Source: Burkholderiales bacterium
Lineage (GTDB): Bacteria > Pseudomonadota > Gammaproteobacteria > Burkholderiales > SG8-39
Length of the DNA: 64,000 bases
Direction of reading: 5' to 3'
NCBI GenBank assembly: GCA_035459025.1
Contig: DATHYT010000034.1
Location: 9,072 to 73,071, forward strand
The position numbers and the translations under genes are program-made. Below the pieces are notes generated by a model, which was not told the DNA's origin, searched no databases, and worked only from the letters and a program-made list of their open reading frames with translations. Below, piece by piece: positions 11,622 through 61,731 of the stretch (the stretch's first letter is position 1; every line of letters starts with the position of its first letter).

Positions 11622-13090
11622 GGCGGCTTGCGCGCATCGTCTGGGTGGCGCTCCGGTTCCGGCTGTATCGCTTCTGGCCGCGTTTCGCGCGGGCCGCCGA
11701 CCCCGAGCGCGCAGTGCGGCTGCGCCGCGCGCTGGAGACGCTCGGGCCGATCTTCGTCAAGTTCGGGCAGGTGCTCTCCACGCGTCGCGACCTCCTGCCG
11801 CTCGACATCGCCGACGAGCTGGCAAAGCTCCAGGATCGGGTGCCGCCGTTCGACCCGGTACTGGCGCGCGCCGAGATCGAGCGCGGCATCGGCAAGCCGA
11901 TCGACGCGGTGTTCTCGAGCTTCGAGCGCGAGGCGGTGGCGAGCGCCTCCATTGCCCAGGTGCACCTCGCGCGGCTCCACGACGGCGCCGAGGTGGCGGT
12001 GAAGGTGCTGCGCCCGGGCGTCGAGCGCGCCATCGCGCGCGACGTGGCGCTGCTCGAAACCGCGGCACGGCTGGTGGAGCTGCTGTGGGCCGATGGCCGG
12101 CGCCTCAAGCCGCGCGAGGTGGTGGCGGAGTTCGCGCGCCACCTGGAGGAGGAGCTGGACCTATTGCGCGAGGCGGCGAGCGCGAGCCAGCTGCGGCGCA
12201 ACTTCGAGGCTTCGGTGCTGCTCGCCGTGCCGCGCGTGTACTGGGACTGGTGCAGCCAGCGCGTGATGGTGATGGAGCGCATGCACGGCACGCCGGTCTC
12301 CCAGGTCGAGCGCCTGCGCGAGAAGGGCGTCGACATCCCGCGCCTGGCGCGCGCCGGCGTCGAGATCTTCTTCACCCAGGTATTTCGCGACGGCTTCTTT
12401 CACGCCGACATGCACCCGGGGAACATCCTCGTCACCGACGAGGGCCAGTACGTCGCGCTCGACTTCGGCATCATGGGCACGCTGACCGAAACCGACAAGA
12501 ACTACCTGGCGCAGAACTTTCTCGCCTTCTTCAAACGCGACTACCGGCGCGTGGCGCAGGCGCACCTGGATGCGGGCTGGGTGCCCGAGGGCACGCGCAT
12601 CGACGATTTCGAGGGCGCGATCCGCGCCGTGTGCGAGCCGATCTTCGCGCGCCCGCTGAAGGAGATCTACTTCGGCAAGCTGCTGCTGCGCCTGTTCCAG
12701 ACCTCGCGCCGCTTCAACGTCGAGATCCAGCCGCAACTGGTGCTGCTGCAAAAGACGCTGCTCAACATCGAAGGCCTCGGGCGCACGCTCGATCCCGACC
12801 TCGACCTCTGGCAGACGGCGAAGCCCTACCTCGAGCGCTGGATGAGCGAGCAGATCGGCTGGCGCGGCTTGGCGCGCGCGCTCGCCCAGGAAGCGCCCAC
12901 CTGGGCGGCGACGCTGCCGCAGCTGCCGCGACTCGCGCACCGGCTGCTGGCCGAAGACCGGCTCGGCGCGCTGGAGCGCGCGCTGGCGCGGATCGGCGAG
13001 CAGAACGTGCGTCGCAATCGTCTGCTCGCGGCGATCGCGGCGCTGCTTGCCGCGGCGCTGATTCTCATTATGATGGCGGCGGCATGCTGA
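11618..13090 (+). CDS. ubiB: ubiquinone biosynthesis regulatory protein kinase UbiB (ABC1/ADCK family)
   Basis: ATG overlaps the ubiJ stop (ATGA). [48 protein letters not shown]. Hydrophobic C-terminal tail. Confidence 0.92.
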
Positions 13091-45500: not shown

Positions 45501-46694
45501 TTATAGCCGTGCGGCCCCGCTTTTCACCATGGCGTCGATCTGCGCGTCGTCGTAGCCCGCCTCGCGCAGTACCTCGCGCGTGTGCTCGCCGAAGCGCGGT
45601 GCGTGGCGCCGGTAGGCGGGCGCCGTCTCCGACCACTCCGAGGGCACCTTCATCGACAGGAGCGAGCCCTCGCTCGGGTGCTCGACGGGCGTGAAGTAGC
45701 CGATCGCCTCGAGGTGCGGATCGCGCAGGATGTCCTCGAGGCTGTTCATGCGCTGCACCGGGATGTCGGCGGACCCAAGCGCGGCGAGCCACTCGTCGGT
45801 CGTGCGCCGGGCCATCTCGTCGGCGACGAAGCTGTAGACGGCGTCGAAGTTCTGGCTGCGCCCCTCCGCGGAGGCGAAGCGCGGGTCGGCCACCATGTCG
45901 GCGCGCCCGACCATCTCGAAGAACGCCTTCCAGTGCTTGTCGTTGTAGATCAGCGCGCAGACGTAGCCGTCCTTGGTCTCGTAGGGGCGGCGAAAGCGCG
46001 TGAGCATGCGCCGGTAGCCCCCCTCGCCCAGTTGCGGCACGAAGGTGTAGCCGCCCAGGTGCTCGCCGAGCACGGACTGCAGCAGGCTCTCGAACATCGG
46101 CACGTCGACGCGCTGGCCCTTGCCGGTCTTCTCGCGCGCGTAGAGCGCCGCGCTTACCGCGTTCGCCGTGTGCAGGCCCACCGAGCGGTCGGCGATGATC
46201 ACCGGCGTGTAGCGCGGCGACTCGCCGCTCGCCTCGCGCGACAGCCACGGCAGGCCCGCCGCGCCCTGGATCAGATCGTCGTAGGCGGCCTTGGCGGCGT
46301 ACGGGCCGCGCTGGCTGTAGCCGAAGCAGCCGACGTAGATGATGCGGGGGTTCACCGCGCGCACGTCCTCGTAGCCGAGCTTCAGGCGCGCCATCGCCTG
46401 CGGACGGATGTTGTACACGAGCACGTCGGCGGCCTTCGCCAGCGCGAGGCAGGCGTCGCGTCCCTCGGGCCTCTTCAGGTCGAGCACGATGCCGCGCTTG
46501 TTGCGGTTGGCGTTGAGGAAGATGTGCCCCATGCCCTTGGAGCGGAACGGCCAGGCCCAGCGCATGATGTCGCCCTCGGGCGGCTCGACCTTCACCACGT
46601 CGGCGCCGAAGTCGGCGAGGATCTGCGTGGCGTAGGGGCCCATCACCACGGTGGTGAGGTCCAGCACGCGCACGCCATCCAGCGGTCCGGGCAT
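45501..46694 (-). CDS. CaiB/BaiF-family (class III) CoA-transferase
   Basis: GVRVLDLTTVVMGPYATQILADFGADVVKVEPPEGD, catalytic Asp region AAYDDLIQGAAG, C-terminal PRFGEHTREVL. Confidence 0.88.
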   Translation of the reverse strand: MPGPLDGVRVLDLTTVVMGPYATQILADFGADVVKVEPPEGDIMRWAWPFRSKGMGHIFLNANRNKRGIVLDLKRPEGRDACLALAKAADVLVYNIRPQAMARLKLGYEDVRAVNPRIIYVGCFGYSQRGPYAAKAAYDDLIQGAAGLPWLSREASGESPRYTPVIIADRSVGLHTANAVSAALYAREKTGKGQRVDVPMFESLLQSVLGEHLGGYTFVPQLGEGGYRRMLTRFRRPYETKDGYVCALIYNDKHWKAFFEMVGRADMVADPRFASAEGRSQNFDAVYSFVADEMARRTTDEWLAALGSADIPVQRMNSLEDILRDPHLEAIGYFTPVEHPSEGSLLSMKVPSEWSETAPAYRRHAPRFGEHTREVLREAGYDDAQIDAMVKSGAARL

Positions 46695-50609: not shown

Positions 50610-50686
50610 GCGCCCGTAGCTCAGCGGATCAGAGTATTGGCCTCCGAAGCCAAGGGTCGTGGGTTCGAATCCCGCCGGGCGCGCCA
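50610..50686 (+). tRNA. tRNA-Arg (anticodon CCG)
   Basis: Hand-folded cloverleaf. Acceptor GCGCCCG/CGGGCGC, D-arm GCUC...GAGU, anticodon stem UUGGC/GCCAA with loop CU-CCG-AA, T-arm GUGGG-UUCGAAU-CCCGC, discriminator G, encoded CCA. 77 nt. Confidence 0.93.
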
Positions 50687-50697
50687 CACCCACGCCG

Positions 50698-51882
50698 ATG
50701 TTTGAGCTGAGCGACACCCAGAAGGCCCTGCAGCAAAGCGCGCGCGACCTGGCGAAAAGGAAGTTCGCGCCGCGCGCCGCCGAGATCGACCGCCGCGAAG
50801 AATACCCGTGGCACAACGTCGAGCTGCTGACGCAGGCCGGCTTCATGGGCATGACCATTCCCCAGGAGTACGGCGGCCAGGGGCTGGGCTACCTGGAGGC
50901 GGTGCTGGTGATCGAGGAAATGGCGCGGGTCTGCGGCGTCACGGGCCGCATCGTCGTCGAGGCCAACATGGGGGCCATCGGCGCCATCATGAAGTACGGC
51001 ACGCAGGCGCAAAAGACGCTGGCCGCGAAGCTGGTGCTGGCCGGGGACAAGCCGGCGATCTGCATCACCGAACCCGAGGCGGGCAGCGCGGCGACGCAGA
51101 TGAGCACACGGGCCGATCGCAAGGGCGGGCGCTACGTGCTGAACGGCCGCAAGCACTGGATCACCGGAGGCGGCGTCTCCAAGCTGCATCTGATCTTCGC
51201 GCGGGTGTTCGAGAACGGCGTGGAGCAGGGCATCGGCGGGTTCATTGCCGTGCGCGGCGAGGCCAGGGGCCTCGTCGTCGGCCGGCGCGAGCCGGCGATG
51301 GGCCTGCGCGGCATCCCGGAGTGCGAGATCCTGTTCGAGGACCTGGAGATACCGCTGGAGATGATGCTGGTGCCCCCCGAGGGAATCCGGCGTGGCTTCG
51401 CAGGACTGATGAACGCCTACAACGGCCAGCGCGTCGGCGCCGCCACGGTGGCGCTCGGCATCGCCGCCGGGGCCTACGAGCTGGCGCTCGAGTATGCGCA
51501 GACGCGCAAGCAGTTCGACCGACCGATCTGCGAGTTTCAGGGCCTGCAGTGGATTCTGGTCGACATGCACACGCAGCTGGCCGCCGCGCGTCTGCTGATC
51601 CACAAGGCCGCGGCGGGATCCGGCGACGGCTTTCCCGACATGACCGAGGCCGCCCAGGCCAAGGTGTTCGCCGCCGACATGGCGATCAAGGTCACCAACG
51701 ACGCCCTGCAGGTTTTCGGCGCGGCCGGCTATTCGCGCGAGCTGCCGCTCGAGCGCATGGTCCGGGATGCGCGCATGTTCACCATCGGCGGCGGCACGGC
51801 GCAGATCCTGCGCACCGTGATTGCCTCGCAGCTGCTCGGACGCAAGCTGCCGCAGACGCGCGACGGCTACAGGAATCTCTAG
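50698..51882 (+). CDS. acyl-CoA dehydrogenase-superfamily flavoprotein lacking both canonical catalytic Glu positions; probable 3-sulfinopropionyl-CoA desulfinase (Acd-like)
   Basis: ACAD fold (ITEPEAGSA, HWITGGG, ERMVRDARMF). The IYEGT position reads IGGGT (Gly365, 51790-92). The IVD/LCAD-type base position reads Gln244 (51427-29). Arg84 (50947-49) sits in VTGRIVVEAN. ATG 50698 lies 11 nt after the tRNA. Confidence 0.75.
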   Translation: MFELSDTQKALQQSARDLAKRKFAPRAAEIDRREEYPWHNVELLTQAGFMGMTIPQEYGGQGLGYLEAVLVIEEMARVCGVTGRIVVEANMGAIGAIMKYGTQAQKTLAAKLVLAGDKPAICITEPEAGSAATQMSTRADRKGGRYVLNGRKHWITGGGVSKLHLIFARVFENGVEQGIGGFIAVRGEARGLVVGRREPAMGLRGIPECEILFEDLEIPLEMMLVPPEGIRRGFAGLMNAYNGQRVGAATVALGIAAGAYELALEYAQTRKQFDRPICEFQGLQWILVDMHTQLAAARLLIHKAAAGSGDGFPDMTEAAQAKVFAADMAIKVTNDALQVFGAAGYSRELPLERMVRDARMFTIGGGTAQILRTVIASQLLGRKLPQTRDGYRNL

Positions 51883-53849
51883 CTTGAAGGCACGGTTGCC
51901 CGCGCGCCCAGCCACGTAATCGCGGCGCCGGCCGCGGCGAGCGCCAACCCGGCGAGCGAAAGCTGCAGGTGGCTCAGGCCCAGTTCGCCGCCGCCGGGCA
52001 TCGCCATGACCAGGCCGCCCGCGAGCATGAGCAGCCGCGCCGCCCAGCCGAGCGCGCTGCGCGCAACCGCGCCGATGCCCACCACGTAGCCTTCGAGCGC
52101 CGAGCCGATGAGCGCGATGCCGGCGATCGCCGTGCCGACCACGACGACGATCTCCCACGGCGTGCCGCGCAGGATGAGCGCCGGGTTGAGCACGAAGAAG
52201 AACGGCACGAAATACATCGCCGCGCCCAGGCGCACCGACTGCAGGCCGACCTGCATGGGCGGCGCCTTGGCGATGCCGGCGGCGACGAACGCGGCGAGCG
52301 CCACCGGCGGCGTGATGAACGACACCATGCCCCAGTACAGCATGAACAGGTGCACCGCCACCGGATCGAAGCCGGCGCCGACCAGCGGCGGCGCGAGCAC
52401 GATGGCGAGGAAGATGTAGCACGCGGTGATCGTCATGCCCATGCCGAAGATGAAGCTGGTGACTGCGCCCATCACCAGCAGCACGTAGATGTTGTTGCCG
52501 GCAAGGTAGACGAGGTCGTTGGCGAGCGTGCCGGCAAGGCCGGTGACCGAGAGCGCGCCGATGATGAGGCCCACGCCCGCGAGCAGCGCCGCGAGCTCGG
52601 AAAGCGCGCCGCCCACGCCTTCTAGCAGCGTGCGCAAACGCCTCCAGTCGAGCCGGTAGCGGCGCGAGAACTGGTTGATGACCAGGAGCAGCGCCGTGGC
52701 GTAGAACGGCGCGAGCGACTCTCGCTGCAGCACGAGCAACATGTAGACCAGCAGCGCGAACACGAACAGGTAGTGCCAGCCCTCGAGGAATGTCTGCCCG
52801 AGCGAGGGCAGCTCTGATCGCGGCAAGCCCTTCAAGCCGTTCTTCGCCGCGTAGCCGTCGATCTGCACGAACAGGGCGAAGTAGAAAAGCAGCGACGGCA
52901 CCAGCGCGGCGACGGCGATGGCGACGTAGGGCAGGCCGAGGAACGACGCCATGACGAAAGCGGTGGCGCCCATCACCGGCGGCATGAGCACGCCGCCCGT
53001 GGAGGCGCAGGCCTCGACCCCGCCCGCGTAGGCCGGCCGGAAGCCGATGCGCTTCATCGCCGGGATCGTGACCACGCCGGTGGTGAGCACGTTGGAAACC
53101 ACGCTCCCGGAGACCGAGCCCATCAGGCCGCTGGCGAAGATCGACACCTTGGCCGGGCCGCCGCGCACCGAGCCGAAGAGGGCGAATGCGAGGTTGTTGA
53201 AGAAATGCGCCGCGCCGGTGTATTGCAGCACCGCGCCGAACATGACGAAGCCGATGACGAGCTCGCCGAAGGCGCGCGTCGGGATGCCGAGCGCACTCTC
53301 GCTGGAGGCGAAGTGAAATGACGCGGTCGAGGCAAGATCGCGCGGCAGCCCGGCGATCGGCCCCGGCATGTGCCCGGCGAACACCGGATACAGAGAGATC
53401 AGCGCCACGACCACGAACACGGCGTTGCCGCCGGCGCGCCGCGTCGCCTCGAGCAGCATCACCCAGCCGACGTAGGCGATCCAAACCGCCTGCGCCGGCG
53501 CCTTGTACTCCCATCCTTCCTCGACGATGCGCTGCGCGTGCAGCGCGAAATACGCGAACACGGCGAACGAGGTCGCAAACAGCAGCACGTCGTACCAGGG
53601 CACGGCATTGCGCCGCGCGTGCTTGCCCGCCGGCACCAGCAGAAACACGCTGCCCACGAGCAGCGCGCATAGCCAGTACAGATACGCGGTGTCGAGAAGC
53701 GTTTTGCCGACGAAGAAGCCGAGGTTGAGCAGCTGGTTGAGCGCAAGGCCGATCGCGCCCGAGACGAGGACGATGAGGACGACGCGCCACAGCGGCGCGA
53801 GCGAACGATAGCGTGCCTCGATCGGCGCCGCCTCGGCGGCGTCGGCCAT
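51879..53849 (-). CDS. TRAP transporter fused (DctQ/DctM-type) permease, TAXI subfamily
   Basis: 656 aa with about 18 TM helices. ALISLYPVFAGHMPGP, SGSVVSNVLTTGVVTIPAMK. Sits directly downstream of the TAXI binding protein. Confidence 0.88.
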   Translation of the reverse strand: MADAAEAAPIEARYRSLAPLWRVVLIVLVSGAIGLALNQLLNLGFFVGKTLLDTAYLYWLCALLVGSVFLLVPAGKHARRNAVPWYDVLLFATSFAVFAYFALHAQRIVEEGWEYKAPAQAVWIAYVGWVMLLEATRRAGGNAVFVVVALISLYPVFAGHMPGPIAGLPRDLASTASFHFASSESALGIPTRAFGELVIGFVMFGAVLQYTGAAHFFNNLAFALFGSVRGGPAKVSIFASGLMGSVSGSVVSNVLTTGVVTIPAMKRIGFRPAYAGGVEACASTGGVLMPPVMGATAFVMASFLGLPYVAIAVAALVPSLLFYFALFVQIDGYAAKNGLKGLPRSELPSLGQTFLEGWHYLFVFALLVYMLLVLQRESLAPFYATALLLVINQFSRRYRLDWRRLRTLLEGVGGALSELAALLAGVGLIIGALSVTGLAGTLANDLVYLAGNNIYVLLVMGAVTSFIFGMGMTITACYIFLAIVLAPPLVGAGFDPVAVHLFMLYWGMVSFITPPVALAAFVAAGIAKAPPMQVGLQSVRLGAAMYFVPFFFVLNPALILRGTPWEIVVVVGTAIAGIALIGSALEGYVVGIGAVARSALGWAARLLMLAGGLVMAMPGGGELGLSHLQLSLAGLALAAAGAAITWLGARATVPSS

Positions 53850-53863
53850 GGCGCTTGCCTAAC

Positions 53864-55018
53864 TCACCAGCTCGTCTGCACCGGGTCGAAGCCGGCCTTG
53901 GTCAGCGCCGCGGCGCGCCGCTTCTGCCACGCTTCGACGAACGCCTTGTCGTCGGCGTACGAGCCCTTCTTCTGCTCGGCCCAGGCCGCCGTGAGCACCG
54001 TCTGGCGCTCGAGAAGCTTGTCGTTGTGCGCCTGCTCGGCGGCGCCCCACTTGCCCATTTCCTTCCAGAAGCGGATCGCGCCGTCGTGGAACGGGATCAC
54101 CCAGGCGAAGTTCTGCCGGTCGACCGCCCAGCCGGCGTTGCCCGGCGCGGCGCCCTTGTACATGTCGTAGGTCTCGACCATCGCCTTGGTCATGTTGTAG
54201 ACGAGATTCGCGTCCTGCGAGGCGTAGGTCATCAGGATCGGGTACGGATAGGTGGCCGATTCCGCGGGCTTGTCCTTCGACAGCTCCGCGCCCTCGGTGC
54301 CCATGAACGGGAAGAAGAACGGCGCCACCGCGTTCATGCGCGCCCAGCCTGCCTTGTCCTTGTGCGAAATGATCGGGTAGACGAGGCCGCGCGGCGACTT
54401 GGCGATCTGATAGGCCTTGCCCGAGATCGACGAGGTGAAGGCGGCGTCGACCTGGTTGTTGATGATGCCGTCCATCGCTGCACCGAAGCCGCCGAACTCG
54501 ACCTTGCGCACGTCGTCCCAGGTGAGGCCGGAGAAGGCGAGCATCGCGGTGATGTTCTGGTTGAGCGCCGGCGAGCCGATCACCCAGGCGACGCGCTTAC
54601 CCTTCAGGTCCGCGATGGTGCGCACGCCCGCATCGCCCGCAGCGACCACGGTCAGCACCTGGTCGGAGGTGTTCAGCATCAGTCCGCGCACCGGCTGCGG
54701 GCCCCAGCTCGGCGCGCCGAACTCGAACACGCCTTCCATGGCGAGGTAGGCTCCGCCCACTCCGTTGGCGGAGAATTGCACCTGACCCTCGCGAATCGGC
54801 AGGTTTCTCGACACGTCGTTCTTGCCCGGCAGCACCCTGAGGCTCACGTTGTACTTCTGCTTGAGCGCGTTGCCGATGGCGACGGCCTGGTTGTAGCCGC
54901 CCGAGCCGACGTCGTAGGCGCTCCAGGAAATCGTCGGCGGCAGCTTGACGTCGGCGTGCGCGGCGACGGAGAAAGCGAGCGTGGCGCCGAGCGCCGCGCG
55001 AAGCAAAGCGTGGGTCAT
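53864..55018 (-). CDS. TAXI-family TRAP transporter solute-binding protein
   Basis: GGAGGAGG SD upstream of ATG 55018. Signal peptide MTHALLRAALGATLAFSVAAHA. SGGYNQAVAIGNALKQ, LPGKNDVSRNLPIREGQVQFS. Confidence 0.85.
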   Translation of the reverse strand: MTHALLRAALGATLAFSVAAHADVKLPPTISWSAYDVGSGGYNQAVAIGNALKQKYNVSLRVLPGKNDVSRNLPIREGQVQFSANGVGGAYLAMEGVFEFGAPSWGPQPVRGLMLNTSDQVLTVVAAGDAGVRTIADLKGKRVAWVIGSPALNQNITAMLAFSGLTWDDVRKVEFGGFGAAMDGIINNQVDAAFTSSISGKAYQIAKSPRGLVYPIISHKDKAGWARMNAVAPFFFPFMGTEGAELSKDKPAESATYPYPILMTYASQDANLVYNMTKAMVETYDMYKGAAPGNAGWAVDRQNFAWVIPFHDGAIRFWKEMGKWGAAEQAHNDKLLERQTVLTAAWAEQKKGSYADDKAFVEAWQKRRAAALTKAGFDPVQTSW

Positions 55019-55077
55019 GATGCCGTCCTCCTCCAAGGTATGCCCACCGATGTTAACCGATTCCCCGGGGCGCTAGA

Positions 55078-55671
55078 ATGCTATCCCCGATGAGCCAGCC
55101 GATCAGCCGCTACCCCGTTCCCGAGCTCAAGAACCTGCCCGAAGACGTGCGCGCGCGCATCCTCGCGGTGCAGGAAAAATCAGGCTTCGTCCCCAATGTG
55201 TTCCTGGTGCTGGCGCACCGCCCCGAGGAGTTCCGGGCGTTCTTCGCCTATCACGACGCGCTGATGGAGAAGGAGGGTGGGCTCACCAAGGCGCAGCGCG
55301 AGATGATCGTGGTCGCGACTTCCGGGGCCAACCACTGCCAGTACTGCGTGGTGGCGCACGGCGCCATCCTGCGGATCCGGGCGAAGAATCCCCTGGTGGC
55401 CGACCAGGTGGCGATCAACTACCGCAAGGCCGATATCCCGCCGCGAGAAAAAGCGATGCTCGACTTCGCCATGAAGGTGGCGCTCGAGTCGCACGCGCTG
55501 GGCGACTCCGACCTCGAGGCGCTGCGCCGACACGGGTTCACCGACGAGGACGCTTGGGACATCGCCGCCATCGCCGCCTTCTTCGCGCTGTCCAACCGGA
55601 TGGCGGACTTCACCGCCATGCGGCCGAACGACGAGTTCTATCCGATGGGGCGGGTGCCGAAGGAGAAGTAG
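55078..55671 (+). CDS. AhpD-like / carboxymuconolactone-decarboxylase-family protein (peroxidase-related enzyme)
   Basis: CxxC motif SGANHCQYCVVAHG, with an FFALSNRMAD tail. Alternative start ATG 55090 if TAGAAT at 55074-79 is the -10. Confidence 0.8.
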   Translation: MLSPMSQPISRYPVPELKNLPEDVRARILAVQEKSGFVPNVFLVLAHRPEEFRAFFAYHDALMEKEGGLTKAQREMIVVATSGANHCQYCVVAHGAILRIRAKNPLVADQVAINYRKADIPPREKAMLDFAMKVALESHALGDSDLEALRRHGFTDEDAWDIAAIAAFFALSNRMADFTAMRPNDEFYPMGRVPKEK

Positions 55672-55675
55672 CCGC

Positions 55676-57541
55676 TCAGGCGGCCAGCACCGCGCCGCCG
55701 CGCGCTGCGGGCGCCTGCAGCCAGCGCGCCACGTCGGCGACACCCTGCCCGGTGGTGGCGGCGGTGCTGAACACGGGAACGGCCGGGCCTTTCTTCAGCG
55801 CGAGCATGCCGAGCAGATCGCGCGCCGTGCGCTCCGCGCCCGCGAGGTCGGCCTTGTTGACGACGAACGCGTCGGCGATCTCCAGGATGCCCGCTTTCAG
55901 CGCCTGCACGTCGTCGCCCAGGCCCGGCGGGCAGACCACCAGGCGGGTCGCCGCGATGCTCGCGATCTCGACCTCGGATTGCCCCGCGCCGACCGTTTCC
56001 ACCAGCACGTAATCGAAGCGCGCGGCGTCGAGCAGCGCGACCACGCTGCGCGTGGCGCCGCTCACGCCGCCAGCGTGCCCGCGCGAGGCGAGCGAGCGGA
56101 TGTAGACCTCCTCGTGTCCCTGCACGTCGCCCATGCGGATGCGATCGCCGAGCAGCGCGCCGCCCGACACCGGGCTCGAGGGGTCCACCGCCACCACCGC
56201 GACGCTCGCGCCGGCCGCGAGCAGTTCCTTTGTGAGCGCGGCGAGCAGCGTGGACTTGCCCGCGCCGGGCGGGCCGGTGATGCCGATCACCCGGGCGTGA
56301 CCGCGATGCGCGGCAAGCTGCCGGCCGAGCGCCGCGCCCTCGGCGCTGCCGTTCTCGATTTCGCTGATGGCGCGCGCGATTGCGCGGCGCTCGCGCGCCA
56401 GCACGCGGTCTGCGAGGCTCGAGCGCGCCTGCAGCAGCTCGGCGTTGTGCTCGCCGAGCTGCGGCGGGGGCGCATAGGCCTGCGCCATGCCGTCGACGCG
56501 GATCGGGTTGCCGACGGCGCGGATCGCTGCGCCCCCGGCGTCGATCGCGACCAGCATGTCGCGTTCCTTTGCGAGCTCGGAGCCGAGCGCCTGCTCCAAC
56601 GTCTGGACCGGGGCGGCCACGACGCCGAGCGGCGCCAGGCGCGCCATCCACGACGCGGTGCTGCCGCCCTTGAAAAGCGGCACCAGCGCGGCGAGCACGG
56701 CGTCGCGGTTCTCGCGCCGCGCCGCCATGGTGGCGAAGCGCGCGTCCTGCACCCAGTCGGCGCGGCCGACCTCGCCGCAGAAACGCCGCCAGAACTCGTC
56801 GTGCGAAATGAACACCACCAGCCAGCCGTCGCTCGTCTCGAACACCTGCGCCGGGACGATGTACGGGTGCGCCGAGCGCGCCATGCGCTGCGCGCGCTCG
56901 CCCGCGTTGAGCCACGCCCCTGCCAGGTAATTCAGCTGCGAGAGCATTACGTCGTGCATCGAGACGTCGATCTGGCCGCCGCGGCCTTCGACGATCTTCG
57001 ATAGCAGCCCGAGCGCGCCCATCATGCCGGCGGAGTTGTCGACCGCCGAGTAGCCGGTCTTCGCGGGCGCGCCGCCGGGCTCGCCGGTGATCGCCATGAC
57101 GCCCGTGAGCGCCTGGATGACGTAGTCGTAGGCCGGGCGGTCGGCGTGGCTGCCTTCCAGGCCGTAGCCGGTGAGCGCAACGCAAACCAGCTTCGGGTTC
57201 GCGTCTTTCAGCGCCTCGTAGGTCAGGCCGAGCTTCCTGATCGCCGCGGGCCGCAGGTTGGTGACCAGGGCGTGCGCGCGGGCGGCGAGGCCGCGCAGCG
57301 CGGCGCGGCCATCGTCGCGCGCCAGGTCGAGCGCGACGCTCTTCTTGCTGCGGTTGAGGCTCGCGAAATAGGCGTTATGCCCGCCCACCTGGTGCGGGCT
57401 GACGCGCCGGCCGATGTCGCCCTCGGGCGGCTCGATCTTGATCACTTCGGCGCCCAGGTCGGCGAGCAGCATGCCGCAGTAGGGACCGGCGAGCATGTGG
57501 CCGACCTCCAGTACGACGATCCCCGAGAGCGGGCCGCTCAT
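55676..57541 (-). CDS. fusion protein: class III (CaiB/Frc-type) CoA-transferase (about aa 1-372) + MeaB/ArgK-type mutase-associated GTPase (about aa 373-621)
   Basis: One uninterrupted 621-codon ORF. GIVVLEVGHMLAGPYCG, catalytic Asp in RPAYDYVIQALTG, PQLGEHNAELL, then RAIARAISEIENG, P-loop GITGPPGAGKST (56249-56275), DPSSPVSGGALLGDRIRM, VETVGAGQSE, NKADL. ATG overlaps the stop of the B12 subunit (ATGA). Confidence 0.85.
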   Translation of the reverse strand: MSGPLSGIVVLEVGHMLAGPYCGMLLADLGAEVIKIEPPEGDIGRRVSPHQVGGHNAYFASLNRSKKSVALDLARDDGRAALRGLAARAHALVTNLRPAAIRKLGLTYEALKDANPKLVCVALTGYGLEGSHADRPAYDYVIQALTGVMAITGEPGGAPAKTGYSAVDNSAGMMGALGLLSKIVEGRGGQIDVSMHDVMLSQLNYLAGAWLNAGERAQRMARSAHPYIVPAQVFETSDGWLVVFISHDEFWRRFCGEVGRADWVQDARFATMAARRENRDAVLAALVPLFKGGSTASWMARLAPLGVVAAPVQTLEQALGSELAKERDMLVAIDAGGAAIRAVGNPIRVDGMAQAYAPPPQLGEHNAELLQARSSLADRVLARERRAIARAISEIENGSAEGAALGRQLAAHRGHARVIGITGPPGAGKSTLLAALTKELLAAGASVAVVAVDPSSPVSGGALLGDRIRMGDVQGHEEVYIRSLASRGHAGGVSGATRSVVALLDAARFDYVLVETVGAGQSEVEIASIAATRLVVCPPGLGDDVQALKAGILEIADAFVVNKADLAGAERTARDLLGMLALKKGPAVPVFSTAATTGQGVADVARWLQAPAARGGAVLAA

Positions 57542-57951
57542 GCCAGCGCGCGCGCCAGCTCGTCGATCATCTGCGCGAGCGGCGCGTCGTTGGTGAACAC
57601 GCCCTTCACGCCTGCGGCGAGGAGCGCCTCGCGGTCCTGCGGCGGGATGGTGCCGCCGACGAATACCGGGATGTCGCCCGCGCCCGCGGCGCGCAGGCCC
57701 TCGAGCACCTCGCAGGACAGCGCCTGGTGGCTCCCCGAGAGGATGGAAAGGCCCACGGCGGCGACATCCTCGTCGAGCGCCACGCGCACGATGAAATCGG
57801 GCGACTTGCGCAGGCCCGTGTAGATCACCTCCGCCCCGGCGTCGCGCAGCGCGAGCGCGATCACCTTGGCGCCCGCGTCGTGCCCATCGAGGCCGGGCTT
57901 GGCGACGAGGATCCGCTTGCCCGCGAGGGGCCCTGCGGCGGGCGCGCTCAT
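57538..57951 (-). CDS. cobalamin-binding small subunit of a split acyl-CoA mutase
   Basis: 137 aa. DxHxxG motif in KPGLDGHDAGAKV, GLSILSGSH, VFVGGTIP. ATG 57951 overlaps the large-subunit stop (ATGA). The rest of the 764-aa track ORF is a shadow frame. Confidence 0.9.
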   Translation of the reverse strand: MSAPAAGPLAGKRILVAKPGLDGHDAGAKVIALALRDAGAEVIYTGLRKSPDFIVRVALDEDVAAVGLSILSGSHQALSCEVLEGLRAAGAGDIPVFVGGTIPPQDREALLAAGVKGVFTNDAPLAQMIDELARALA

Positions 57952-59528
57952 AGCCGCACCGGCTCCTGGAACTCGCCCCAGCAGCGCTTGAGGCGCGCGA
58001 CCATCTCGCCCACGGTGGCGTAGGCGTGGCAGCACTCGACGAGCAGCGGCATCAGGTTCTCCTTGTCGTCGGCGGCCGCGGCCTCGAGCGCATCGAGCGC
58101 CCGCCCCGCGCGCGCCGCGTCGCGCCGCTGCTTCACGGCGGCGTGCTTGTCCAGCACGCGCGCGGCCGTGCCCGGGTCGAGGCGGAACACCTCGCCGAAG
58201 CTCTGCGCCTGCCCTTCGCGCCGGTAGCGGTTCATGCCGACCACCACGCGCTCGCCGCGGTCGGTCGCGTCCTTCTTCTCGCGGGCGCGCAACGCGATGC
58301 GGCGCTGCAGCCAGCCGTCCTCGATCGCCTTCACCACGCCGCCGTAGGCGTCGATCTCGCCCATCGCCTGGCGCATGCCTTCCTCCATGCGGTCGGTGAG
58401 CCACTCGACGTAGTAGCTGCCGCCGAGCGGATCCACGGTCGCCGCGACGCCGCTTTCGTGCTGCACGATCTGCTGCGTGCGCAATGCGAGCTCGGCGGAG
58501 AACTCGGTCGGGATCTGGAAGGCCTCGTCGTAGGCGCAGGTGAAAATCGACTGCGCGCCGCCGAGCACCGCGGCGAGGTTCTCGATCGCCACGCGCACGA
58601 TGTTGTTGTAGGGCTGCGCGGCGACGAGCGAGGAGCCGCCGCACACCACGCCGAAGCGAAAGTGCAGCGCCTTCTCGTCGGTAACGCCGTAGCGGCTGCG
58701 CAGCAGCTGCGCCCACAGGCGGCGCCCGGCGCGGAACTTGCACGCCTCCTCGAACAGGTCCATGTGCACGTAGAAGAAGAACGACAGCCGCCGCGCGAAC
58801 TTCGCCACGTCGCCGCCCCGGCGGATGAGCTCGTCCACGTAGGCGAGGCCGTTGGCGAGCGTGTAGGCCATCTCCTCCACCGCCGTGCAGCCCGCGTCGC
58901 GCACGTGCGCCCCGGCGATCGAGATCGCGTTGAAGCGCGGCGTCACCTCGTTCGCGTAGAGCACCGAGTCGGCGATCAGGCGCATCGACGGCCGCACCGG
59001 GAAGATCCAGGTGCCGCGCGCGACGTACTCCTTCAGGATGTCGTTCTGGATGGTGCCGGTGAGCTTGGCGCGCGGCACGCCCTGCTTGTCGGCCGCGGCG
59101 AGGTACATCGCGTAGATGATCGCCGCCGTGCCGTTGATGGTGAACGAGGTGGAGATCGCGCCGAGGTCGATGCCGTCGAACAGGGTCTCCATCTCCGAGA
59201 GCGAGAACAGCGACACGCCCACCTTGCCGACCTCCGGCCGCGCCATGGGGTCGTCGGGGTCGTAGCCGCATTGCGTGGGCAGGTCGAGCGCGACCGAGAG
59301 CCCGGTCTGCCCCTGCTCGAGCAGGAACCGGTAGCGCTGGTTGGACGTCTCCGCGGAGCCGAAGCCCGAGTACTGGCGGATGGTCCAGGGCCGCCCGCGG
59401 TAGCCGTCGGCGAAGATGCCGCGCGTATACGGATAGACGCCCGGCGCGCTGGGCGCGGCGGCCATCTCCTCGCGCACCACCACGGGCACCTCGATTCCCG
59501 AGGGCGTCGTTACGCGCGCGTCGCTCAT
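57948..59528 (-). CDS. acyl-CoA mutase large (substrate-binding TIM-barrel) subunit, divergent methylmalonyl-CoA-mutase family member
   Basis: PYTRGI, RPWTIRQYSGFGS, GLSVALDLPTQCGYD, GTIQNDILKEYVARGTW, PYNNIVRVAIE, LRTQQIVQHESG. Several family-invariant motifs are replaced (see findings). Confidence 0.88.
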   Translation of the reverse strand: MSDARVTTPSGIEVPVVVREEMAAAPSAPGVYPYTRGIFADGYRGRPWTIRQYSGFGSAETSNQRYRFLLEQGQTGLSVALDLPTQCGYDPDDPMARPEVGKVGVSLFSLSEMETLFDGIDLGAISTSFTINGTAAIIYAMYLAAADKQGVPRAKLTGTIQNDILKEYVARGTWIFPVRPSMRLIADSVLYANEVTPRFNAISIAGAHVRDAGCTAVEEMAYTLANGLAYVDELIRRGGDVAKFARRLSFFFYVHMDLFEEACKFRAGRRLWAQLLRSRYGVTDEKALHFRFGVVCGGSSLVAAQPYNNIVRVAIENLAAVLGGAQSIFTCAYDEAFQIPTEFSAELALRTQQIVQHESGVAATVDPLGGSYYVEWLTDRMEEGMRQAMGEIDAYGGVVKAIEDGWLQRRIALRAREKKDATDRGERVVVGMNRYRREGQAQSFGEVFRLDPGTAARVLDKHAAVKQRRDAARAGRALDALEAAAADDKENLMPLLVECCHAYATVGEMVARLKRCWGEFQEPVRL

Positions 59529-60268
59529 CGGCGCGCCCCGATTGCCCTGGCGGTGCGCTGCAGCGCCTCGGCGAGGGGCTTGAGCGCGGCCTCGATGCGG
59601 TGCGCGGGTCCGGCGACCACCACGGCGTAGAGCTCGCCGTCGATGCGCACCGGGGCGCCGAGCGCGTGCACGTCGGCGACGTTCTCGCCGCGCGTCGCGT
59701 ACCAGCCGCGCTTCGCGCCCGCCGCGAGGTCCTTTTCCAGCAGCTCGCGCCGCACGAGCGTGTTGCGCGTGACGCGCGCGAGCTTGAGCGTGTCGAGGAG
59801 CGCGGCGCGCTCGGCCGGCGGCAGCGCGCCAAGCAGTGCCTTGCCCGCCGCGCTCGAGTGCAGCGGCTTGCGGTCGCCGGGCTGTGCGCTGTAGCGGATC
59901 GAGTGCGGGGACTCGACGACGTTGAGGTACACGACCTCGGTGCCGCTCCTCTTGCCGAAAACGATCGTCTCGCCGGTGGCCCTGCCGAGCGCCTCGAGAA
60001 GCGGTGTTACGCGCTCGAGCATCGGATCGTGCTCGGCCACCGCGCGCGCCTTCTGCAGCCAGCGCAGCGTGGGGTACCAGCCCTTGCGCAGGCCGAGCTC
60101 GTACAGGTACCCGCGAAGCTCCAGGGTGCGCAGCAGCGCGTAGCAGGCAGACACCGGGATCGCGAGCCGGCGCGCGAGCTCGGCGATGCCGAGCGGCTCG
60201 CCCGCGGTGGCGAAGGTCTCCAGGATCTGCAGCGTGCGGTCGGCGCTCTTGACGGTCGACATGTTCAC
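59525..60268 (-). CDS. IclR-family transcriptional regulator
   Basis: SADRTLQILETFA...LGIAELARRLAIPVSACYALLRTLE (wHTH) plus an IclR effector domain. Start GTG 60268 or ATG 60262. The stop overlaps the mutase ATG (ATGA). Confidence 0.88.
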   Translation of the reverse strand: MNMSTVKSADRTLQILETFATAGEPLGIAELARRLAIPVSACYALLRTLELRGYLYELGLRKGWYPTLRWLQKARAVAEHDPMLERVTPLLEALGRATGETIVFGKRSGTEVVYLNVVESPHSIRYSAQPGDRKPLHSSAAGKALLGALPPAERAALLDTLKLARVTRNTLVRRELLEKDLAAGAKRGWYATRGENVADVHALGAPVRIDGELYAVVVAGPAHRIEAALKPLAEALQRTARAIGARR

Positions 60269-60330: not shown

Positions 60331-61731
60331 TCAGCCCGCCAGCGGCGGGCGGCGCTTCCAGGCCTGCGTTTCCTGCTCGAACGCGTGCGCGAGCTGCAGC
60401 ACCCCGAAGTCATCGCGATAGCGCCCGATGACCTGCAGGCCGACGGGCAGCCCCGCCGGGGTGAAGCCCGCGGGCACCGAGATCGCCGGGTGGCTGGCGA
60501 TGGTGATGTAGTAGCAGCTCTTCATCCAGTCGAGATAGTTCGTCAGCTTCACGCCGGCGATCTCGGTCGGGTACTCGGTCTCGACCGGGAAGGGCGGCAG
60601 CTGGCTCACCGGCGCGAGCAGGAACTCGTAGGTCTCCAGGAACGCGCGCAGGCGCTGGTAGAGCTCGGTGCGCAGCACTTCGGCGCGCGCGATCTTCGCG
60701 CCGTCGAGCGCAAGCCCCTGCTCGATGTTCCAGATCACCGTGGCCTTCAGCTCGGCGCGGTGCGTCTTCAAGTACCGCGCGTAGCGCAGGGCGAAGGACA
60801 CCGCGCGCAGCGTCTCGAAGGCTTCCGTGGCGCCGCTGAAATCGGGGCAGGCTTCTTCGACGATGCAGCCGAGGTCCTGGAACACCCTGCGCTGCGCTTC
60901 CAGCACTGCGCTCACCGCGGGCTCCACCGGCAAGCCGCCGAAGTCTTTCGTCCACGCCATGCGCACTTTCTTGAAAGAGCGCTTGAGCGGCTTGGCGAAG
61001 ATCGATCCCGGCTCGGCGATCGACACCGGCGCGCGCCGGTCGGGCCCCGCCATGGCGGAGAGCAGGAAGGCGGCGTCTTCCACCGTGCGCGCGACCGGTC
61101 CGAGCACCGACTGGGTGTCCCAGGCGTTCGCCGCGGGGTAGGAAGGCACGCGGCCCGGCGTCGGGCGGAAGCCGACGACGTTGCAGTAGTTGCCGGGGTT
61201 CCGCAGGCTCGCGGCGAGGTCCGAGCCGTCGGCGAACGGCAGCATGCCGCAAGCGACCGCGGCCGCGGCGCCGCCCGAGGAGCCGCCCGCGGTCTTGGAA
61301 GGGTCGTAGGGATTGCGCGTCGCGCCGAACACCTTGTTGAAGGTGTTGCTGCCGGCGCCGAATTCCGGCGTGTTGGTCTTGCCCAGCGTGATCGCGCCCG
61401 CAGCCTTCAGGCGCTCGACCAGCAGCGCGTCTGCAGCCGGGACGTTGTCCTTGAAGACGAGCGATCCCATGGTGGTGCGGACGCCCTTCGTCGGCAGCAG
61501 GTCCTTGTAGGCGATGGGCAGGCCGGCAAGCGGCGGCTTCTTGCCTTTCTGGCGGTCCAGGGCCTTCGCTTCCTTCAGCGCCTGCTCGGGCAGGAAGGTG
61601 ACGATCGCGTTCACCTTGGGGTTCACGCGCTCGATCCGGGCGATGAAAGCCTGCATCACTTCTGTGGCGGAGAGCTTGCGCGCGTGGAGAAGGCGGGCGA
61701 GCTGGCGCGCGGGCGTATAGGGGATGTCCAT
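60331..61731 (-). CDS. amidase-signature family amidase
   Basis: GLPIAYKDLL, GKTNTPEFGAGSNT, AGGSSGGAAAAVA (Ser-cisSer-Lys signature). 466 aa. Confidence 0.88.
   Translation of the reverse strand: MDIPYTPARQLARLLHARKLSATEVMQAFIARIERVNPKVNAIVTFLPEQALKEAKALDRQKGKKPPLAGLPIAYKDLLPTKGVRTTMGSLVFKDNVPAADALLVERLKAAGAITLGKTNTPEFGAGSNTFNKVFGATRNPYDPSKTAGGSSGGAAAAVACGMLPFADGSDLAASLRNPGNYCNVVGFRPTPGRVPSYPAANAWDTQSVLGPVARTVEDAAFLLSAMAGPDRRAPVSIAEPGSIFAKPLKRSFKKVRMAWTKDFGGLPVEPAVSAVLEAQRRVFQDLGCIVEEACPDFSGATEAFETLRAVSFALRYARYLKTHRAELKATVIWNIEQGLALDGAKIARAEVLRTELYQRLRAFLETYEFLLAPVSQLPPFPVETEYPTEIAGVKLTNYLDWMKSCYYITIASHPAISVPAGFTPAGLPVGLQVIGRYRDDFGVLQLAHAFEQETQAWKRRPPLAG

Follow-up and report, generated by a model that had tools for sequence, protein, structure and literature searches.

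A probable fusion of a class III CoA-transferase with an arm-less MeaB G domain beside a noncanonical B12-dependent mutase

Does a single gene in a Burkholderiales genome encode both a class III CoA-transferase and a MeaB-type chaperone GTPase, and what would such a union mean for the B12-dependent mutase encoded beside it? We analyzed a 64,000-nucleotide stretch of a Burkholderiales bacterium (GenBank assembly GCA_035459025.1, contig DATHYT010000034.1, positions 9,072 to 73,071), hereafter the window, in which an ATG-initiated open reading frame (ORF) of 621 codons without internal stop occupies positions 55676–57541 on the minus strand. The gene is likely a true fusion that yields one polypeptide from two neighboring genes of a B12-mutase operon, with a complete CoA-transferase at the N-terminus and, behind a short linker, a MeaB G domain that lacks the C-terminal dimerization extension (the arm). 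The public record HSG75549.1 (NCBI), from a Burkholderiales metagenome-assembled genome (MAG), holds the identical 621-residue protein and names it merely "MeaB."

Domain composition of the fused protein

The CoA-transferase domain spans residues 5–366 (56444–57529, minus strand), where the Pfam family CoA_transf_3 (PF02515) was matched over its full length (profile 1–366 of 366, E 4e-111). Motifs identified in this part were GIVVLEVGHMLAGPYCG at residues 7–23, the catalytic-region motif RPAYDYVIQALTG, containing AYDYVIQA, at residues 135–147, and PQLGEHNAELL at residues 360–370. In class III CoA-transferases, a conserved catalytic Asp forms an acyl-anhydride intermediate; Asp139 of AYDYVIQA, invariant in alignments of 16 and of 58 homologs, is presumably this residue. 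None of the NCBIfam class III equivalogs (succinate-glutarate, succinyl-CoA:mesaconate, oxalate, formyl-CoA, and carnitine) scored above its cutoff, the top scores being 250 bits against 750 for succinate-glutarate CoA-transferase, followed by 231 against 700 and 226 against 522. The domain lies nearest to dicarboxylate-type enzymes, including succinate-glutarate and succinyl-CoA:mesaconate CoA-transferases, YfdE, and SUGCT, and its nearest characterized relatives use succinyl-CoA or acetyl-CoA as donors and C2–C6 dicarboxylates as acceptors.

Alignment of the fused relatives delimits a linker at residues 367–388 (56378–56443, minus strand), and the MeaB G domain follows at residues 389–606 (55724–56377, minus strand), with the N-terminal extension, P-loop, switches I, II, and III, and NKAD. 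The Pfam MeaB profile matched here from 2 to 229 of 273 positions (E 6e-73), and the NCBIfam model for MeaB, TIGR00750, scored 255.1 bits against a cutoff of 240.75 (profile 2–230 of 300). We located RAIARAISEIENG at residues 386–398, the P-loop GITGPPGAGKSTLL with GPPGAGKST at residues 420–433, DPSSPVSGGALLGDRIRM, including DPSSP..GGALLGDRIRM, at residues 453–470, VETVGAGQSE at residues 514–523, and NKADL, which keeps the NKxD base-specificity loop, at residues 562–566. In switch III, GLGDDVQALKAG of the fusion aligned with GAGDELQGIKKG of Methylobacterium extorquens MeaB (GDDVQALKAG vs. GDELQGIKKG), and the Asp, Gln, and Lys of the fusion correspond to MeaB D182, Q185, and K188, whose roles in switch III have been described (PMC9974510). 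Alignments to solved MeaB structures ran from about residue 10 to about residue 250–255 of 315–330; thus, the protein has an N-terminal extension and a full G domain with switch III, and it lacks the C-terminal extension that mediates MeaB dimerization (PMC9974510). The G domain is followed by only about 12 residues, which are disordered, and an AlphaFold2 (AF2) model of the monomer, of moderate confidence (pLDDT 73.6, pTM 0.44), ends in a helix at residues 601–609 and a disordered tail.

A preliminary description of this ORF, made from the sequence without database searches, had read it as an uninterrupted 621-codon frame joining a complete CaiB/Frc-type CoA-transferase to a MeaB-like GTPase without its dimerization arm. 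Frame, domains, and missing arm are all borne out, every motif that it quoted was found at a definite position in the protein, and the strand, which it had not given, is minus. Its proposal that the gene is translationally coupled to the B12 subunit upstream also holds in the DNA, where the ATG of the fusion and the stop codon of the B12-subunit gene share ATGA (CTGGCATGAGCGGC, GCATGAGC).

Recurrence of the fused frame and selection on its parts

Two genes could have been joined on paper by an assembly or sequencing indel in the GC-rich linker, a merger against which the preliminary description had cautioned, and the origin of the window in a Burkholderiales MAG lends this some weight, as does another apparent fusion (locus L016, protein P0115) in which the C-terminus of the CoA-transferase is clearly frameshifted. 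Recurrence in independent assemblies excludes such an indel, and we regard an artifact as effectively refuted. The same 621-residue product was identified in at least 10 further, independent Logan/ENA assemblies besides the NCBI record, and in a protein collection clustered at 90% identity, both Pfam domains occurred together and in frame in 46 clusters of 615–645 residues with 70–100% identity. Clean fused ORFs of 617–634 residues were present in 6 species-level genomes, across which the linker was kept as protein, and no separate MeaB start or stop context was found when the junction was inspected.

A second group in the same collection, with 688–739 residues and 53–58% identity, also combined both domains, and the architecture that the preliminary description had noted in a single gene was found in about 55 clusters. 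Among the 1.84 billion representatives of a clustering at 50% identity, it was seen in 1 full representative (P0086) and 1 fragment (P0245) only, the remaining long matches being CoA-transferase tandems or CoA-transferase-crotonase fusions. Such other fusions of class III CoA-transferases were frequent among the representative matches (P0186, P0224, P0121, and many matches of about 800 residues), with CoA-transferase-crotonase proteins of 654–657 residues and tandem CoA-transferase-CoA-transferase proteins of about 760–860 residues. The 673-residue protein P0115 (L016, 10001–12019) was rejected as a third fusion; the C-terminal third of its CoA-transferase is out of frame and reads as Ala/Arg/Gly-rich nonsense, probably through a frameshift or an assembly error.

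Both halves of the fusion are maintained by purifying selection. Comparison of the window with the fused species genomes gave ratios of nonsynonymous to synonymous substitution (dN/dS) of 0.18–0.30 for the CoA-transferase domain and 0.21–0.28 for the G domain, with 0.46 for the latter in one comparison. The linker (dN/dS 0.13–0.67) and the tail were under weaker constraint, and linker length varied among the fused relatives, with an insertion of 14 residues in L002.

Gene fusion and domain loss among related operons

To place the fusion among its relatives, we scanned one genome per species, which returned 282 related loci, and counted the states of the locus in the best 80. The order of mutase large subunit, B12-binding small subunit, CoA-transferase, and MeaB was kept in nearly all of the 80 loci. 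CoA-transferase and MeaB were encoded by separate genes in 63 of them, in agreement with the earlier statement that the two parts are normally separate proteins; in these loci, the CoA-transferase had 371–386 residues, the 2 genes lay in different frames or in the same frame with a stop between them, and their junctions overlapped or abutted. No MeaB was detected beside the CoA-transferase in 10 loci, 3 of which are on contigs that end inside the CoA-transferase gene, and the fused state was assigned to 7, including the frameshifted L016. Read from these gene arrangements, the fusion is best described as a lineage-specific joining of two operon neighbors. The fusions of about 700 residues are nearest to Halomonas-type loci, in which the 2 genes share one frame with a single stop between them, and they keep the full MeaB C-terminus with its arm; this type represents a second, independent origin of the fusion.

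In 3 loci (L086–L088) with a CoA-transferase 92% identical to that of the window and the same synteny from amidase to TRAP permease, the whole G domain is gone. DNA alignment and synteny identified a block of 729 nucleotides (243 codons, residues 377–619; window 55685–56413, minus strand) that is absent in frame from these relatives, with both flanks collinear and with the stop codon and the 5-nucleotide spacer to the following CMD gene shared; the deletion points are 7128/7129 in L086, 4048/4049 in L087, and 2847/2848 in L088, corresponding to window 56413–55685. MeaB-less operons were also found in L008, L012, L013, L023, and L026, the last of which carries 3 TctC genes. Within the window's own clade, the G domain is labile, and the simplest reading of these alignments is that the fusion came first and that some sublineages later deleted the G domain in frame.

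Arm-less MeaB proteins also occur on their own. L017 and L019 encode stand-alone MeaB proteins of 275 residues that lack the arm and are 62% identical to the G domain of the window, and they stand in related operons, so the arm was not lost as a result of fusion; judged from these sequences, its loss is older than the fusion or independent of it. In both operons (L019, 10707–11534; L017, about 12138–12833), a TctC gene lies between the MeaB gene and that of the CoA-transferase.

The partner mutase and its pocket

The mutase encoded beside the fusion is split into a large (substrate) subunit of 526 residues (57948–59528, minus strand) and a B12-binding small subunit of 137 residues with DxHxxG present (57538–57951, minus strand), both recognized by Pfam and NCBIfam, and the G domain is encoded directly downstream of the two. 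We consider this mutase module a more promising lead than the fusion itself. The best match of the large subunit in the PDB was HcmA (4r3u, 469 bits), the large subunit of 2-hydroxyisobutyryl-CoA mutase (HCM), followed by human methylmalonyl-CoA mutase (MCM; 435 bits), with MCMs scoring from 435 to 386 bits. Residues were mapped on Propionibacterium shermanii MCM and checked against chain indices. MCM Tyr89, Gln197, Arg207, His244, and Glu370 are kept as window Tyr53, Gln161, Arg171, His208, and Glu335, and 7 other positions are changed, with Tyr243 replaced by Ala (Y243A), His328 by Gly (H328G), Gln330 by Val (Q330V), Thr331 by Cys (T331C), Ser332 by Gly (S332G), His364 by Phe (H364F), and Asn366 by Cys (N366C). 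HcmA and 3 MCMs carry Y-H, H-x-Q-T, and H-T-N at the changed sites.

These replacements are shared by 76 orthologs with 71–94% identity. None of the 76 departs from Ala243, Gly328, or Val330, and none differs in the motifs SIAGAHVRDAG and RFGVVCGGSSL; SIFT[CA]A.DEA is nearly invariant, with Cys (65 orthologs) or Ala (11 orthologs) at position 366. Orthologs on plasmids or chromids are 72–76% identical, and a gap separates the group from its next relatives, at 57% identity or less; the conserved altered motifs together with this gap define a distinct mutase subfamily.

Within the MCM active-site set, Tyr89, Gln197, Arg207, and His244 are kept and positions 243, 328, 330, and 366 are changed, and the model NF006944 scored 563 against a cutoff of 876. 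The HCM specificity residues, which Kurteva-Yaneva et al. in 2015 reportedly identified as Ile90, Asp117, and Gln208, are Tyr, Ala, and Arg in the alignment with 4r3u_A. From this residue pattern, we conclude that the mutase is not a canonical MCM and that its predicted pocket matches neither of the mutase types compared (methylmalonyl-CoA and 2-hydroxyisobutyryl-CoA). Most likely, its pocket is roomier and less polar, with Arg207 and Tyr89 holding a carboxylated acyl-CoA. The subfamily is widespread, with 282 loci in the species-genome collection, and cultured strains, among them Paraburkholderia caribensis MBA4, Sulfitobacter dubius DSM 109990, Achromobacter xylosoxidans, and Bordetella petrii, carry the same module under generic PGAP names ("methylmalonyl-CoA mutase family protein," "CoA transferase," and "GTP-binding protein"). 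If the substrate of the mutase were identified, both a new acyl-CoA mutase reaction and a new route of carboxylate catabolism would come to light.

Comparison with characterized systems

The G domain of the window shares with the stand-alone, dimeric G3E GTPases MeaB, MMAA, and ArgK the N-terminal extension, the P-loop, switches I and II, the switch III Asp/Gln/Lys, and NKxD, as well as a gene position adjoining a B12 mutase, but it is joined covalently to a CoA-transferase and has no C-terminal extension. IcmF likewise holds a MeaB-type G domain within a larger polypeptide and without a dimerization arm of its own, and active G-G dimers would have to form through oligomerization of the host protein (PMC10481361). 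The partner in IcmF is the mutase itself, whereas in the window it is an enzyme that makes or consumes the thioester, and the mutase resides in 2 separate subunits. The preliminary description had drawn this same distinction, and it stands: the mutase subunits are separate ORFs, and the IcmF model NF045497 scored 137 bits against a cutoff of 1500. IcmF is the only fused MeaB named in the literature that we consulted (PMC10481361, PMC9164220). Against a picture of MeaB chaperones as stand-alone dimers with this sole exception, the window would provide a second fused architecture, on a thioester-forming enzyme.

The split layout of large and small subunits is that of HcmAB, and the Ala, Gly, Val, and Cys of the window mutase set it apart from the Tyr243, His328, Gln330, and Asn366 of both HcmAB and MCM. 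The sbm-argK(ygfD)-ygfG-ygfH operon of Escherichia coli, which Haller et al. in 2000 are said to have linked to the conversion of succinate to propionate, resembles the module found in the relatives of the window in combining a B12 mutase, a MeaB-like GTPase, a crotonase-family enzyme, and a CoA-transferase. The module differs from it in that its CoA-transferase is of class III and not YgfH-type, its split mutase has a pocket unlike that of MCM, and the crotonase of the relatives carries Gln at the second catalytic Glu, the window having no crotonase gene. In anaerobic auxin degradation, the class III CoA-transferase IaaL, a phenylsuccinyl-CoA transferase, supplies substituted succinyl-CoA to the two-subunit B12 mutase IaaGH, a phenylsuccinyl-/benzylmalonyl-CoA mutase (PMC8360864). 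Going by described function, this pair offers a plausible parallel to a mutase that keeps Arg207 and has an enlarged pocket, although the Iaa proteins are separate and stand in another and much larger operon context.

A literature search yielded no paper describing a CoA-transferase joined to MeaB and none on the partner mutase subfamily, and the architecture did not turn out to be a family already characterized and named. Public databases already contain the fused proteins, under generic names only.

Interpretation of the fusion

As the related loci show, the ancestral operon held an IclR regulator, a crotonase, the mutase large and B12 small subunits, a class III CoA-transferase, and MeaB, together with a carboxylate uptake system. 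One Burkholderiales lineage then lost the stop/start junction between the CoA-transferase and MeaB genes, making an already arm-less MeaB the C-terminal domain of the CoA-transferase. The N-terminal domain would use succinyl-CoA or a comparable donor to convert an imported acid, probably a dicarboxylic one, into the acyl-CoA on which the mutase acts, and the G domain may serve as the usual GTP-dependent gatekeeper in the loading, removal, or repair of adenosylcobalamin on the split mutase. The main effect of the fusion may be that co-expression is fixed at 1:1. Class III CoA-transferases are obligate interlocked homodimers, as this one is expected to be, and because of this, two G domains carried on such a dimer may be pre-paired, making up for the arm that was lost and echoing the situation in IcmF. 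That such compensation is needed is made less likely by the stand-alone arm-less MeaB of L017 and L019.

Several of the observations reported above weigh against this interpretation. The nearest relatives have deleted the G domain cleanly and do without it, MeaB-less operons occur as well, arm loss did not await the fusion, and the AF2 monomer model does not inform the arrangement of the domains or the quaternary structure. The G domain could be heading for loss in the window lineage too. Since sister lineages deleted it and most carriers keep the genes apart, the fusion is, on this comparison, beneficial or neutral and not essential.

The preliminary description had gone further and suggested that the fusion could physically link the exchange of thioesters to loading of the cofactor or gating of the mutase, an idea that we treat as speculation and that is weakened by the majority of loci with separate genes and by the clean loss of the domain from the nearest relatives. 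Developed into a scaffold, it would have the G domain dock on the B12 subunit and tether the CoA-transferase, so that a labile acyl-CoA passes directly to the mutase and substrate supply is coupled to cofactor gating and repair. The same two genes were fused in 2 independent events, and their adjacency and translational coupling beside the mutase are invariant, as such a metabolon would lead one to expect. The Y243A mutant of MCM described by Vlasie and Banerjee in 2004 is reportedly prone to inactivation, and if the Ala at this position in the window mutase has a like effect, the need for a nearby repair chaperone would be greater. Succinyl-type thioesters of substituted succinates have moreover been reported to be labile (PMC8360864). 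With separate genes in 63 of 80 genomes, relatives that are 92% identical and have otherwise identical operons lacking the G domain, and a linker that is weakly conserved and variable in length, we nevertheless consider channeling on a scaffold unlikely. A bolder extension, which we hold to be rather improbable, is an undescribed B12 pathway in which the mutase with its remodeled radical pocket (Y243A, H328G, Q330V, and Cys/Ala366) would act on a carboxylated acyl-CoA that is bulkier or unusual and comes from the fused CoA-transferase, whose dimer would hold two arm-less G domains docked on the B12 subunit, the resulting transferase-chaperone-mutase metabolon channeling a labile thioester and coupling its supply to cofactor repair.

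At the other extreme, the G domain may be a nonfunctional, arm-less remnant that became part of the CoA-transferase by read-through and is now being eliminated, leaving the CoA-transferase as the only part that matters. The missing dimerization extension, the complete removal of the domain in frame from the closest relatives, and MeaB-less operons in the same clade would all fit a decaying relic, but the dN/dS of the G domain (0.21–0.28) is near that of the CoA-transferase, the nucleotide-binding and switch motifs are all intact, and the architecture is kept in relatives down to about 70% identity, and we judge decay to be quite improbable. A true fusion of two operon neighbors, both under constraint, remains the reading that we prefer. 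Being arm-less, it offers a natural test of how far the MeaB mechanism needs its own dimer interface, and of whether the chaperone and the enzymes of the pathway come together on the mutase. Natural controls are available within one clade, in the form of separate genes, fusions with and without the arm, stand-alone arm-less MeaB, and clean deletion of the domain.

Operon context and neighboring genes

The fusion is the last member of a chain of overlapping genes in which the IclR-family regulator (59525–60268, minus strand; Pfam) comes first and overlaps the mutase large subunit, which overlaps the B12 subunit, which in turn overlaps the fusion. Beyond the fusion lies a convergent gene for a CMD/AhpD-like "peroxidase-related enzyme" (55078–55671, plus strand), 5 nucleotides from the fusion stop, and this junction is common to fused and MeaB-less relatives. 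It is followed by a TAXI-family TRAP solute-binding protein (53864–55036, minus strand) and a TRAP fused permease (51879–53849, minus strand), all three annotated from Pfam and NCBIfam; the TAXI-TRAP system is likely the uptake system for the substrate of the module. No further MeaB or mutase paralog was found in the window.

Across the related loci, the conserved core comprises IclR, crotonase, mutase large subunit, B12 small subunit, CoA-transferase, MeaB, and a carboxylate uptake system, the type of which varies, with TctC in 35 loci, MFS in 21, DctPQM in about 11, and TAXI-TRAP in the window and on a Sulfitobacter plasmid. In 68 of about 76 loci, a crotonase (ECH) gene separates IclR from the mutase; this gene is cleanly absent at the 59525–59528 junction of the window and in L003, L004, L013, L015, L027, and L087. 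In the crotonase of the relatives, the first catalytic Glu is kept and the second is replaced by Gln, which suggests that it is probably not a plain hydratase; no specific family match was obtained for it as a YgfG-like decarboxylase.

An acyl-CoA dehydrogenase family gene (50659–51882, plus strand), convergent with the TRAP permease gene, scored 669.7 bits against a cutoff of 600 for the NCBIfam equivalog 3-sulfinopropanoyl-CoA desulfinase. It stands at this spot in the window and L041 only; in L084 and L085, a cytochrome c gene directly follows the TRAP permease, without a desulfinase between. A reading of the module prompted by this neighbor is unsupported, given that restricted adjacency and a mutase pocket that is not MCM-like, and a proteomics paper on strain TBEA6 gave no link for it. 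Directly upstream of the IclR-mutase string, and syntenic in L084 and L086, is an amidase gene (60331–61731, minus strand; subfamily NF005686, 517 vs. 465 bits), whose product might convert an amide into the acid substrate. A second class III CoA-transferase of 397 residues, 33% identical to the fused one and without an equivalog match, is encoded at 45501–46694 (minus strand) beside PTS enzyme I and is syntenic in L084 and L085.

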